Shown here in pieces: positions 20,248 to 23,769 of a stretch of DNA of 24,829 bases (positions are counted from its first letter, which is position 1; the number at the start of each line of letters is the position of its first letter). The position numbers were made by a program, and so were the translations under genes. Source of the stretch: Sulfurimonadaceae bacterium (GTDB taxonomy: Bacteria > Campylobacterota > Campylobacteria > Campylobacterales > Sulfurimonadaceae); assembly GCA_041571435.1 (NCBI GenBank), contig JBFFUI010000033.1:1-24829 (forward strand). Reading direction: 5' to 3'. The notes below the pieces were generated by a model, which saw only the letters and a list, made by a program, of their open reading frames with translations, had not been told where the DNA came from and ran no database searches.

Positions 20248-20877
20248 CTACAGCAGTGCTTCGAGCTCGTGCAGCGTTTTGATGCGGTGGGTAGCGTTGC
20301 TGAAGTCATGGCTGATGGTGAAGTGGTTATGGACGACAACACAGTCGATGCCGGCATTGACAGCGGAGCGGAGTCCGCGCTCTGAATCTTCAACGACGAT
20401 CGCTTCATGTTTCTCGCCTCCAAAACGTGCCAGTCCGTTCAGGTAGGGGTCAGGGTGTGGTTTTGAACGGCCGTACTCACCACTGCAGAGCGCAAATTCC
20501 ATGTGATCGGTGATGCCGCGCTTGGCATGGATAAGCTCGAAGTCCTCGCGACGGGCCGAGGTGATGATGCCCATACGATACTTTTCGTTGAGTGCAGCCA
20601 GCACGTCATAGACGCCCTCAATGGTGATGTCTTCCGTTTCCAGATAGTGCTGATAGAGTTCATTGCGTCTGTCGCGGGCCGCTTCAACGCTGGCGCTGTC
20701 AAACCCCGCCTCTTCGGCCAGCAGAAAAGCGCTTTGCCCGTTCACCATGATGTCACGGTACCGCTCTTCATCCAGGGTGATGCCCATAGTCTTGAGGATC
20801 TCTACGTTGGCTAGGTAGTACCATTTTTCGGTCTCGACGAGGACACCGTCGTTGTCAAAGAGTATGTATTTTTTCAT
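20248..20877 (-). CDS. HAD-superfamily hydrolase (subfamily IA phosphatase)
   Basis: Motif I FDNDGVL, motif II ITS, motif III KPHPDPY, motif IV VEDS. Confidence 0.93.
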   Translation of the reverse strand: MKKYILFDNDGVLVETEKWYYLANVEILKTMGITLDEERYRDIMVNGQSAFLLAEEAGFDSASVEAARDRRNELYQHYLETEDITIEGVYDVLAALNEKYRMGIITSARREDFELIHAKRGITDHMEFALCSGEYGRSKPHPDPYLNGLARFGGEKHEAIVVEDSERGLRSAVNAGIDCVVVHNHFTISHDFSNATHRIKTLHELEALL

Positions 20878-20883
20878 GCGGGA

Positions 20884-20892
20884 ATTATAGCA
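20884..20892 (-). promoter_or_regulatory. Extended -10 promoter of the HAD gene (leaderless geometry)
   Basis: Minus strand reads TGcTATAAT-tcccgc-ATG. No SD. Confidence 0.65.
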
Positions 20893-20962
20893 GATAACCT
20901 ACTTGTTAAAGCGTTTTATCACATTGGAAACTGTAGGTAAAATTGTGACTTTATAGACGTGT

Positions 20963-21198
20963 CTCTTTCCTTTTTGTTCCGCCAAAAAGGAAACGAAAAA
21001 GCTCTCGCAACGGCTGCGAGGTCGGCGGGCTGCCGACTACCATCCTTCCTCTCTATCACAGCCTAAAAACGACAAACTCGCTACGCTCAGACAAGCCGTT
21101 TTTTTAACGGCTGCGCTAGAGTTCCAGTCTGCTCTGTAGATGCTGCGAAAAGAACCAAGCGGTGACGCATTGATTTAATTTAAAAGCTGACGCTTTTA
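20963..21198. repeat. Structured ~240-bp repeat, copy 1
   Basis: Aligns end to end with 21457-21696. At least four stems are conserved, several by covariation. Confidence 0.85.
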
Positions 21199-21234
21199 GC
21201 ATTGTTAGAAATTGTCAATTACTTACTACGTCTT

Positions 21235-21366
21235 GGTACAGTGGCTGAAGCCGGAGGGATTTCGTGGTGTTGAGAATGGATGGTTCAATGAGTGACTGTA
21301 CCCGCCTTCGTACTCTCTTTTTTTCCTCAAGGTTTTTTCTCTGTACGAGCAGAGAAAAAAAGTTGA
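21235..21366. other. Structured module between the repeat copies (hairpin plus pseudoknot-like pairing)
   Basis: GGTACAGT (21235-42) pairs with ACTGTACC (21295-302). 11-bp stem 21333-43/21350-60, with loop TACGAG complementary to TTCGTA (21307-12). Confidence 0.6.
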
Positions 21367-21456
21367 ATACTAGGGCTATGAAGTAATTCAAAAAGTGTAA
21401 TTGTTCAACATAACACTGTTGTCATAGACTTTGAATATCTAACTTTTGTTATTTCA

Positions 21457-21696
21457 CTCTTTCCTTTTTTTACCGCAAAAAAGGAAACGAAAAAGCTCTC
21501 TCAACGGCTTCGAGCCCGACAAGCTGTCGGGTACTTTCACTCCAGTCGTTCATTCGCTAAAAATCCCTAACTCGCCTACGGCTCAGACAGAGTGATTTTT
21601 TTAACGCTCTTTCTCTCCTTACGTTCAACTCTGCAGATGTTTCGAAAACATTCAAGCGGTAACGCATTTATTTGTATTTAAAAGCTTCCGCTTTTA
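21457..21696. repeat. Structured ~240-bp repeat, copy 2
   Basis: Direct diverged copy of 20963-21198, offset by 494 bp. Confidence 0.85.
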
Positions 21697-21841
21697 TCCC
21701 AATTTTTGTCGTAGGGGGAGTTGTTATCGCTGGTGTCGCAATAAGATTGTGAAAAGCAGATTATCGCAATTTCTGAAAGGCATCTTGCTTCATAATTCTT
21801 AAAACCAAACTGTTAAATAATCCTATTACACTCGCTTTCGC

Positions 21842-21847
21842 TATAAT
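21842..21847 (+). promoter_or_regulatory. Putative -10 box of mnmG
   Basis: TATAAT about 48 nt upstream of ATG 21895. Confidence 0.5.
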
Positions 21848-21894
21848 TGCACTATTAAAAGACAGAGAACTGTCAAGAAAATAATGGACAAACT

Positions 21895-23769
21895 ATGAAT
21901 TATGATGTAATCGTCGTCGGCGGCGGCCATGCGGGTATTGAAGCCTGTCTGGCTTCGGCGCGTATGGGGCATAAAACGCTATTGGTATCGATGCTGGCAG
22001 AGAATGTCGGTGCGACGAGCTGTAACCCGGCTGTCGGCGGACTGGCCAAAGGGCACTTGGTAAGAGAGCTTGACGCCCTTGGCGGTGAGATGGGGCTCAT
22101 TACTGATGAGGCCGGGATACAATTCCGCATTTTGAACAACACCAAAGGACCTGCTGTCCGCGGTACACGCGCCCAGATCGATATGGACCAGTACCGTGTG
22201 ATCGCCCGTAATATCGTCTTGAACACGCCGAACCTTGAACTGTTGCAGGAGACGGTGGATGACCTGTTGATAGAAGACGGCGTGGTCGTCGGTGTGCGTA
22301 CCGATCTTTTAAACGAGTACGGCGCCAAAAAAGTCATCTTGACGACAGGTACGTTTTTACGCGGTGTCGTGCACATCGGTGAGGTCACCAAAGAGGCGGG
22401 CCGATTCGGCGAGTTCGCGGCCAACAAGCTCTCTATCTCCCTGATGGATGCCGGACTTACCATCGGCCGTCTGAAAACGGGGACCTGCCCGCGTATCGAC
22501 ACCTCGACCATCGACTTCTCCGTCATGGAGGAGCAGCCGGGCGACGAACTGCCGACGCCGTTCAGTTTCCGTACCGACCGCGAGGCCTTTAAAGAGAACA
22601 AAGAGCAGCTGCCGTGTTACATCACCTACACCAACATCGACACGCATGAGATCATCGAGAAGAACTTCTACAGAGCACCGCTCTTCACCGGTCAGATCGA
22701 AGGGGTCGGCCCGCGCTACTGTCCGAGCATCGAAGACAAGATCAACCGTTTCCGCGACAAGGAACGTCACCACCTCTTTATCGAACCGCAGACCATGGAC
22801 AACACGGAGTGCTACATCAACGGCATGAGCACCTCGCTGCCGCCGGAGGTACAGCAGGAGATGGTCCACTCCATCAAAGGGATGGAGAACGCCAAGATCG
22901 TCCGTTACGGCTATGCGATCGAGTATGACTATGTCGACCCGACGGAGCTGACCCACTCGCTGGAGACCAAGAAGGTCAAAAACCTCTATCTCGCCGGTCA
23001 GATCAACGGGACGACGGGCTACGAAGAGGCGGCCGCGCAGGGGCTGATGGCGGGGATCAACGCCGCTTTGAGCCTGCAGGAGAAAGAGCCGCTTGTTCTC
23101 GGACGCGACGAGGCCTATATCGGCGTGCTCATCGACGACCTGGTGACCAAGGGGACGAAAGAGCCTTACCGCATGTTCACCTCGCGTGCCGAGTATCGCC
23201 TGCTGCTCCGCGAAGAGTCGGCGGACATGCGTCTGAGCCGTTACGGCCACAATATCGGGCTGATCGACGATGCGACGATGGCGGCGGTCGACGAAAAGAT
23301 CGCGCAGATCAAAGAGGGTGTCGACATCATCAATGGCACCGACTACACACCGAACAAAGAGTTTGTTGCCTTTTTGGAGAGCATCGGCGAAGAGCGCATC
23401 AGCGACAAGATCAACGCCCAGCAGATCATCTCACGCAAGAGTTTCACCCTTGACAAGCTGACAAAACTGCTGCCGGAGCTCTCAAAGTTCAGCGACTACA
23501 TCCAGGAGCAGATCCTGGTCGAAGCCAAATACGCCCGCTATGTCGAAAAGCAGCAGGAAGACATCGAGAAGATGAAGAAGAACATCCACGTCAAGATCCC
23601 CGAAGGGTTCGACTTTGCAGCGGTGCGCGGTTTCTCCAAAGAGGTGATCGACAAGCTCGAGAAGTTCCAGCCGCCGACGCTGCAGGCCGCGTCGCAGATC
23701 TCGGGGATCACCCCGGCGGCCATCGAGATCCTGCACATCTACATTAAAATGGCGGAAAAGAAGCAGTAG
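21895..23769 (+). CDS. mnmG: tRNA uridine-5-carboxymethylaminomethyl(34) synthesis enzyme MnmG (GidA)
   Basis: [67 protein letters not shown]. Confidence 0.99.

Follow-up and report, generated by a model that had tools for sequence, protein, structure and literature searches.

The long spacer between a HAD hydrolase gene and mnmG in a Sulfurimonadaceae bacterium raises the question of what kind of DNA would keep its base pairing while its letters change. The window referred to throughout is the whole stretch analysed, 24,829 nucleotides of contig JBFFUI010000033.1 (assembly GCA_041571435.1), and the spacer, window 20878-21894, holds two diverged copies of a non-coding sequence. A reading of the letters alone (here the sequence-only reading) had proposed either a structured non-coding RNA (ncRNA) or a non-autonomous mobile element with a single-stranded fold, and this proposal is supported by covariation, by dispersed copies and by differences in presence and absence. 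The two copies belong to a family of repeats that is spread through this genome and its relatives, is present or absent at orthologous sites, and has a common branched fold whose pairs covary. It constitutes a new structured nucleic-acid family of 63 pairs with a three-way junction, and its hundreds of copies are spread over 14 of the 23 genera sampled; the hosts are little-studied sulfur-oxidising Campylobacterota. The reading preferred here, at a probability of roughly 0.45, is that of a non-autonomous mosaic element, similar to miniature inverted-repeat transposable elements (MITEs) or foldback elements, whose arms would act as RNA within neighbouring transcripts.

The spacer had been described as free of open reading frames (ORFs), which is borne out in that its longest ORF has at most 58 amino acids (aa); the direct copies claimed at 20963-21198 (copy A) and 21457-21696 (copy B) were both found at those coordinates. 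A repeat search aligns 20963-21081 with 21457-21575 at 76% over 119 nt, plus two more blocks, and blastn gives 74% for copy A against copy B. The picture of a pair is right in that the two copies are real and too narrow in that the genome has nine and its relatives hundreds; likewise the hairpins of the earlier fold stand, but a long-range helix (P1), an extension of helix P3 and a repeated 200-nt tail at 21199-21400 had been overlooked. The core fold consists, in order, of a 5' hairpin (H1), a three-way junction (P1, P2, P3), a hairpin with a GYRA loop and an A/U-rich 3' hairpin, placed in the window as follows.

20940-20962, plus strand: AT-rich, semi-conserved 5' leader of copy A (..GACTTTATAGAC..), from flank alignment
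20963-21198, plus strand: core module of copy A, about 236 nt, from nhmmer and covariance model matches
20966-20993, plus strand: hairpin H1 of copy A (TTTCCTTTTTG / CAAAAAGGAAA), with 11 of 11 pairs changed on both sides across genera
21005-21020, plus strand: 5' strand of P1 of copy A, partner 21132-21148, from RNAalifold
21132-21148, plus strand: 3' strand of P1 of copy A, from RNAalifold and pair counts
21021-21037, plus strand: hairpin P2 of copy A (GTCGGC-n5-GCCGAC), 5 of 6 pairs changed on both sides, 98.5% paired
21041-21131, plus strand: long irregular helix P3 of copy A, from alignment pair counts and mutual information
21041-21061 with 21111-21131, plus strand: outer part of P3, from mutual information in 115 copies
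21062-21074 with 21095-21110, plus strand: inner A-tract/T-tract part of P3, from pair counts
21080-21086, plus strand: tip hairpin of P3
21159-21168, plus strand: small hairpin GCG-GTGA-CGC of copy A (GYRA loop), within the conserved word AAGCGGTRACGCATT, from sequence conservation
21181-21198, plus strand: 3' hairpin of copy A, TAAAAGC-TGAC-GCTTTTA, 6 of 7 pairs changed on both sides
21199-21400, plus strand: structured tail of copy A, repeated as a second module and ending ..ATGAAGTAATTCAAAAAG, from repeat matches elsewhere in the genome
21434-21456, plus strand: 5' leader of copy B, from flank alignment
21457-21696, plus strand: core module of copy B, covariance model score 252.5 bits
21460-21487, 21499-21514 with 21628-21644, and 21515-21531, plus strand: H1, P1 and P2 of copy B
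21655-21664 and 21678-21695, plus strand: small hairpin GCG-GTAA-CGC and 3' hairpin of copy B
21697-21760, plus strand: short tail fragment of copy B (ATCCCAATTTTTGTCG..GTGTCGCAATAAGAT), resembling the ATCCCTGTTTG..GTGCCGCAATGAGAT module found after many copies
20248-20877, minus strand: HAD hydrolase gene, flanking the spacer
21895-23769, plus strand: mnmG, flanking the spacer

When the upstream flanks of 43-44 copies are aligned, the word CTTTATYGAC recurs 5-10 nt before the core, and a 236-nt metagenome contig has its ends exactly at 20963 and 21198. Four DNA sequencing runs over the region gave only high repeat depth and cross-copy joints.

The search for homologues (nhmmer, blastn and a covariance model, CM) yielded many dispersed copies in the genome and in its relatives. 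Within the window's own genome (2.16 Mb, 66 contigs) an nhmmer profile finds nine copies on five contigs: two each on the window, on C3, on C36 (inverted) and on C46 (tandem), and one on C6. One of the C46 copies carries a 78-nt insertion and the C6 copy has an internal deletion. The copies sit between unrelated housekeeping genes: HAD and mnmG, a YfiH-like gene and dxs, a DEAD helicase gene and the dUTPase gene, AI-2E and lgt, truD and thiF, and POR and tetR. By blastn all 15 of the other genomes in the genus contain the element, as do 2 of 9 further genera of the family; 16 other families of the order gave no match. The CM, built from 45 copies, recognizes the family in 26 of 61 Sulfurimonadaceae genomes belonging to 14 of 23 genera, with 1 to at least 34 copies per positive genome and 9 to at least 34 matches per genome within the window's genus; it has no match in genera g2 (0 of 5 genomes), g3 (0 of 4), g5 (0 of 4) and g10 (0 of 4). 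When 185,579 species genomes were scanned for a two-word pattern, 20 loci came back, all in metagenome-assembled genomes labelled Sulfurimonadaceae (9), Helicobacteraceae (5), Campylobacterota (5) and Campylobacterales (1). Plasmids and phages gave no match by blastn, and viral contigs none by pattern scan.

That the repeat matches no known RNA family, as the sequence-only reading had claimed, agrees with Rfam 15, in which the best E-value is about 1 over window 20500-22200 and there are no matches at E<=1 on three long composite loci, and with ARAGORN, which calls no tRNA or tmRNA gene in window 20500-22000. For Sulfurimonas and Sulfuricurvum a literature search found no account of an element of this kind; one paper merely lists Sulfurimonas in a table of repetitive extragenic palindromes (REPs). 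The spread of the family bears directly on another account of the locus, a decayed local duplication of the HAD-mnmG spacer whose pairing would be a matter of chance or a by-product. The window copies are indeed direct neighbours and 74-76% alike, but seven further copies lie on four other contigs, hundreds occur in other genomes, and no control attains the covariation described below; the further copies and the covariation (blastn, nhmmer, CM and shuffles) refute local duplication, which retains practically no probability.

The evidence for the fold is comparative. RNAalifold, applied to 50 and to 45 copies, recovers the hairpins noted earlier and adds the long-range helix P1 that encloses P2 and P3. 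Among the 45 copies, to which the pair counts refer unless another number is given, P1 pairs vary as UA 24, AU 8 and CG 7; as GC 27 and AU 15; and as AU 29, GC 8 and CG 6. The pair swaps that had been read from the two window copies recur across the family: at the closing pair of H1 (UA 22, GC 12), in P2 (GC 27, CG 15; UA 30, CG 15; AU 30, GC 14; CG 25, UA 19) and in the A-tract/T-tract stem within P3 (CG 25, UA 15; GC 22, CG 15). The small GC-tac-GC stem is readable in the sequence and varies as GC 34 and CG 8, and the pairing claimed for the 3' hairpin is kept through AU 22, UA 12, GC 5 and CG 4. The small GCG-GYRA-CGC hairpin is conserved in sequence and shows almost no covariation.

Mutual information among 115 distinct copies revealed an extra register, at consensus positions i + j = 253, which is the outer part of P3. 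Outer P3 reaches P1 and P2, and the domain thereby becomes a three-way junction in which hardly any linker is left free. Covarying Watson-Crick pairs alternate in it with conserved pyrimidine-pyrimidine mismatches (TC, CT), and a minority subfamily has full pairs at the mismatch positions. Examples of covarying pairs, chosen and counted on one and the same alignment, are CG 78 and UA 23; UA 50, CG 23 and AU 22; and CG 60, AU 18 and GC 11.

Three alignments give the same result. The MAFFT alignment of the 45 copies comprises 54 pairs; 93.9% of its cells pair, as against 83.4% after shuffling, with 271 double-change cells against 85 shuffled and 11-28 when partners are slid, and 31 of the 54 pairs have changed on both sides. 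The CM-fitted alignment of 34 distinct copies from other genera (54 pairs) has 89.9% of cells paired against 71.3%, 338 double-change cells against 94 shuffled and 11-50 slid, and 40 of 54 pairs changed on both sides. The alignment of all 115 distinct copies (63 pairs, outer P3 included), also CM-fitted, has 90.9% against 74.3%, 1182 double-change cells against 347 shuffled and 109-162 slid, and 53 of 63 pairs changed on both sides. None of 500 shuffles attains the observed paired percentage or double-change count in any of the three, the related copies within each alignment not being independent of one another. Folded by itself, copy A is only modestly more stable than its shuffles (z = -2.19 on the plus strand, -3.29 on the minus strand), and the structural case therefore rests on comparative data. 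The strong covariation in all three alignments upholds the earlier claim of selection on the fold rather than on coding, and indicates that it is the single-stranded fold of the repeat that is under selection. The core is still alignable at the mnmG site where the surrounding spacer is not. Two local interpretations were discarded: a hairpin CTCG..CGAG as a minus-strand terminator is not supported, since its bases covary with their distant partner in P1, and a single-strand origin at the word TAGCGA (minus strand) was dropped because that word changes along with the covarying stem.

The core is part of larger units. The 258 nt between the two window copies are not unique: the tail segment 21199-21388 recurs after a C46 copy, matching C46:2310-2500 at about 81-90%, and its part 21308-21388 recurs on C3 (70539-70619) at 97.5%, about 190 nt downstream of a C3 copy. 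The same tail lies downstream of the core in other species, and within the window's genus the structured tail measures 175-400 nt. A tail hairpin at 21327-21366 (TCAAGGTTTTTTCTCTG / CAGAGAAAAAAAGTTGA) was observed whose pairing is preserved in other species as CTTTG/CAAAG, CTTCTTG/CAAGAAG and CTTTCTG/CAGAAAG. A 40-aa frame behind GGAGG in the window's tail was rejected as a small ORF, as other copies do not preserve it. Tails and 5' modules are common to copies in patches, as in a mosaic; small insertions lie within copies, and some copies are truncated or interrupted. Both C46 copies have in the H1 loop a GC-rich palindromic insert of ~50 nt (L023, 2041-2092 and 2593-2644; ..AGTTCCGCCCTGTGCGGCGCTTTAGCGCT..), which in the window's genome occurs only there; like inserts in other genomes lie in either orientation inside or beside copies, and the insert resembles a tiny nested repeat. 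The 78-nt insertion in the second C46 copy (L023, 2610-2979) breaks P3, and other copies have insertions of 30-120 nt in the same region.

Twenty copies fetched from genome G010 have a common unit of about 455-520 nt that runs from an AT-rich leader through the core to a 175-nt tail, in which hairpins of the tail itself covary and whose end, ..ATGAAGTAATTAAAAAAG, is conserved; a REP-like hairpin comes first in 10 of the 18 copies aligned. This hairpin, TCATTCCGGGCTTGACCCGGAATCTAC followed by a T run, lies about 70 nt upstream of the G010 cores (L126-L145) and has compensatory variants. As a genome-wide target it was rejected: it is absent from the window's genome and has seven strict matches in G010, at least four of them beside elements. 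When reversed, the tail end aligns weakly with H1 plus linker (score 19.8, against 14.5 shuffled and 16.9 on the same strand), and the tail may therefore be a degenerate inverted arm. An unfiltered CM search of a long composite found no reverse copy, with matches at the level of hairpins only, and the tail as an inverted full copy was rejected.

Whole inverted arms are found in genus g7. In G083, 16 of 21 matches form eight pairs, seven of them tail-to-tail with gaps of 21-67 nt, and seven of the eight typed pairs consist of one a arm and one b arm, the eighth including an a-like arm. The two arm types differ by type-specific 3' hairpins, P1 strands and 5' leaders of at least 50 nt. Arm identity is 0.63-0.73 within a pair and averages 0.71 (maximum 0.91) between pairs, and since within-pair identity equals that between pairs, what multiplied was thus the heterotypic pair and not a fresh palindrome. 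Single units have no clean inverted ends; the inversion in g7 is of whole arms.

The check for empty sites, made at mnmG and at two spacers of G002, found copies present in some genomes and absent from others at orthologous positions. Upstream of mnmG, among 12 judgeable genomes, there are two copies in G000, G002 and G009 and one in G005, G008 and G010, and no copy within the available DNA in G001, G003, G004, G006, G011 and G015; the G004 HAD-mnmG spacer is only about 380 nt. Comparison of G002 with the window's genome, whose flanks are 90-96% identical, shows two convergent spacers that are filled in G002 (669 and 711 nt) and almost empty in the window's genome (28 and 48 nt); one site has two copies in the window's genome and one in G002, and other sites vary in copy number or module content. 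The repeat family thus accounts for variable spacers between conserved genes and for the assembly breaks there. The mnmG upstream region itself has a conserved TATAAT at 21842-21847 and, downstream of it, a leader hairpin GACAGAGAACTGTC at 21861-21874. In other species both strands of its stem have changed (GGCAGAG..CTGCC, GACAAAG..TTGTC) amid a diverging spacer, and a consensus scan also flagged the hairpin as terminator-like on the minus strand.

Modules bracket or adjoin small accessory genes at five loci in three other genera. Between inverted arms there are an AbiC/AbiP-like gene (PF16872, E = 4.7e-21) and two unrelated uncharacterised proteins of 263 and 349 aa; RelB and YafQ lie between two tandem copies, and a BrnT/BrnA-like pair lies beside one copy. 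Cassettes were thus found in 3 of about 20 pairs examined and beside two further copies. The genes enclosed are AbiC-like, toxin-antitoxin or uncharacterised, and mutually unrelated. That a/b pairs in some cases surround Abi or toxin-antitoxin genes raises the question whether the repeats mark cassette exchange or drive it.

According to the preferred reading of a mosaic, MITE- or foldback-like element, the conserved unit would be a module of ~250 nt that folds as a single strand; in the window's genus the tail would be a worn-down inverted partner arm, and in genus g7 the unit would be the full inverted pair of diverged arms a and b. The element would be gained and lost between genes and so mark variable spacers that sometimes hold small accessory cassettes. 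Its arms would be transcribed with the neighbouring genes and thereby come under selection for the RNA fold, with a putative role in processing, stability or termination at gene borders by analogy with bcr1 and ERIC. The mode of movement and the acting strand enter this scheme as suppositions.

A number of observations weigh against that reading. The 250-nt three-way junction with its conserved unpaired words exceeds what a MITE needs, and the covariation among subfamilies could reflect constraint on a few source copies and not on every copy. The indications of strand conflict. For the plus strand there are a conserved G.U in P1 (41 of 45 copies and 92 of 110), the small-hairpin loop that reads GTGA/GTAA (GYRA) and, in the 3' hairpin, G.U 21 against A.C 4. 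For the minus strand, there are at Watson-Crick positions 176 A.C (read as G.U from the opposite strand) against 113 G.U, and within P3 84 against 24; the outer-P3 mismatches turn into tandem 5'-GA-3'/3'-AG-5' and other purine pairs; and 92 of 94 copies have the lower folding energy on this strand, the mean difference being 12.3 kcal/mol. Signals of expression are sparse: no peak of a -10 box at fixed offset appears across 73 anchored upstream regions, and a consensus scan gave one promoter-like and two terminator-like sites, not above shuffles.

The same holds for signs of movement. At the two filled/empty sites and on or around 18 full G010 copies no target-site duplication was seen, though the fuzzy borders of the element mean that a short one could have escaped notice, nor any clean terminal inverted repeat. 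The most similar G010 pair is 89% alike over 454 nt (among 20 of 30 matches) and the most similar G083 pair 0.91; with no near-identical copies there is therefore no sign of recent movement. A search for a linked gene family next to the copies (transposase, TnpB, reverse transcriptase, integron integrase) found none; TnpB and IS110 transposases number zero in the window's genome. The single Y1/RAYT-like gene of the window's genome does not co-occur with the element: among 61 genomes, 13 carry the element together with this gene or its relatives, 13 the element alone, 16 the gene alone and 19 neither of the two. The RAYT-like Y1 gene (G000 C1:148-1028, L074; 257 aa, with PF01797 and, at the C terminus, a helix-turn-helix) lies between the arms of a perfect inverted repeat of 28 nt that is unrelated to the element, there is no element copy on its contig, and its relatives occur in 29 of the 61 family genomes, often in several copies. 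As regards retrons, there is no element copy on C52, the contig of the genome's one reverse transcriptase. That enzyme (527 aa, G000 C52, L088:1468-3051) lies between a Ham1-family gene and a methyltransferase gene and has its best PADLOC matches among retron-type reverse transcriptases (RT_II-A, E = 1.6e-43); its ncRNA might lie in the 235 nt upstream of the gene.

The complexity of the fold would also be explained if each module were a gene for a free-standing, trans-acting structured RNA, the copies being sibling ncRNAs and perhaps part of a ribonucleoprotein, a guide or a scaffold, retained for the activity of the RNA as such. The complex architecture conserved in 14 of 23 genera fits this, as do the long-range closing helix, the junction, the conserved unpaired words, the conserved G.U and the internal-loop mismatches; the copies within a genome are old (at most 89% identity) and yet 91-94% paired, and the arm types of g7 differ in their conserved leaders, each of at least 50 nt, with a TATGAT/TATTAT word abutting the a-type core. 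However, the 73 upstream regions yield no fixed-distance -10 box, no terminator-like end is seen (the 3' hairpin holds only two G-C pairs), the strand signals conflict, and copies are truncated, interrupted or carry insertions. Copy number ranges from 0 to at least 34 among related genomes and whole genera lack the element, which would be unusual for a needed RNA; free-standing RNA genes are held to be unlikely. The position of the copies speaks for the preferred mosaic-element reading: of 69 that were placed by crude ORF calling, 26 have convergent neighbours and 11 divergent ones, which fits a tolerated position at gene ends. Orientation relative to genes means nothing in convergent and divergent spacers; in tandem contexts single copies are sense in 11 cases and antisense in 5 by the same crude calls, some of them wrong, which is not decisive.

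The absence of a preferred strand and the neighbouring cassettes would instead fit a fold that served as single-stranded DNA, as an attC-like cassette border or an IS200/IS605-like end recognized by an enzyme during replication, transformation or conjugation. Structure conserved beyond sequence and mismatches within helices are as in attC sites, the signals single out no one RNA strand, modules bracket or adjoin accessory cassettes at the five loci, arrays occur with a period of 500-900 nt, and there are hairpins at both element ends. On the other hand, integron integrases (TIGR02249) exceed the cut-off in only two of five element-bearing genomes (G073 and G083, not G000, G044 and G051), and none of the element matches listed lies on the integrase contigs. 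TnpB and IS110 are lacking in the window's genome and the Y1 gene shows no correlation; the copies occupy many separate loci and are not gathered in one array; the 250-nt branched fold, which takes up the entire unit, is unlike the short end hairpins or the single hairpins of 57-141 nt in known single-strand sites; there are no recent copies; and the few cassettes could reflect shared permissive spacers. A single-stranded DNA site is held to be just as unlikely as free-standing RNA genes. The three integron-type integrases of genus g7 (G073:C54:1434-2378, G083:C51:162715-163656 and G083:C11:56355-57296) score 393-417 bits against a curated cut-off of 265.

It is improbable that the repeat is the nucleic-acid part of an undescribed system, either a new class of folded recombination site of ~250 nt with a three-way junction, which would enclose and move small defence and toxin-antitoxin cassettes at loci across the chromosome with no integron involved, or a new multi-copy structured RNA with a partner protein. 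Were the fold to work as an RNA together with a partner protein, or to serve in recombination as a site, the family would represent a new system and not another repeat. The covariance model of the repeat is in any case usable for annotation.

Among known systems, MITEs are recognized by many non-coding copies that differ in presence and absence among relatives, which is found here, and by a related autonomous element with a transposase, which the TnpB/IS110 scan and the genes between arms did not yield. REPIN doublets, which go with RAYT (Y1) transposases, are inverted repeat doublets between genes built from REPs of 20-40 nt; the inverted doublets and the single RAYT-like gene are shared features, but that gene is not flanked by the element. 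Palindrome-associated elements derived from IS200/IS605, with their TnpB/IscB guide RNAs, have end hairpins, no terminal inverted repeats or duplications, and multi-stem RNA of 150-300 nt, and the HEARO and IS605-orfB motifs are present in Rfam; the present repeat differs in having no TnpB, no Rfam match and no Y1 correlation, and no conserved target word was seen at the left flank of its copies. In attC sites structure is conserved over sequence, with conserved mismatches. The conserved mismatches and the neighbouring toxin-antitoxin and Abi-type cassettes are similar, whereas here the loci are dispersed, the module is branched and 250 nt long, and the integrase is not adjacent. Intergenic mosaic and minimal mobile elements of Neisseria form modular spacer arrays beside exchangeable cassettes in a naturally transformable lineage, their units being short repeats bounded by 20-bp dRS3 sites; we know of no comparable conserved fold in those units, and they resemble the Sulfurimonadaceae repeat in mosaic, modular build without any sequence relation to it.

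The nearest parallels are with dispersed repeats described in PMC3184786. ERIC, Correia/NEMIS and other MITEs are likewise non-coding, multi-copy, foldable, near gene ends and variable in presence, and can be co-transcribed, ERIC affecting mRNA decay; unlike the present family they end in short terminal inverted repeats, come with TA or other duplications and form one long hairpin (PMC3184786), whereas in the Sulfurimonadaceae repeat each arm folds alone, arms are 63-73% alike and no duplication was found. The bcr1 and bcr5 repeats of the Bacillus cereus group are dispersed and intergenic, of 155-310 bp, with a non-conserved distribution among relatives, and bcr5 copies flank both ends of a gene cluster (PMC3184786). 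The bcr1 repeat is transcribed, and compensatory changes keep its cruciform-like RNA fold as they keep that of the Sulfurimonadaceae repeat; it differs in its 5-bp direct repeats, none of which was seen here, and in its two-hairpin cruciform (PMC3184786). The Sulfurimonadaceae repeat, known from DNA sequence alone, has a three-way junction and three hairpins, bears no sequence likeness to bcr1 and belongs to another phylum. A dispersed repeat with compensatory changes is nevertheless of a kind already known in other bacteria, as bcr1 and ERIC attest (PMC3184786).

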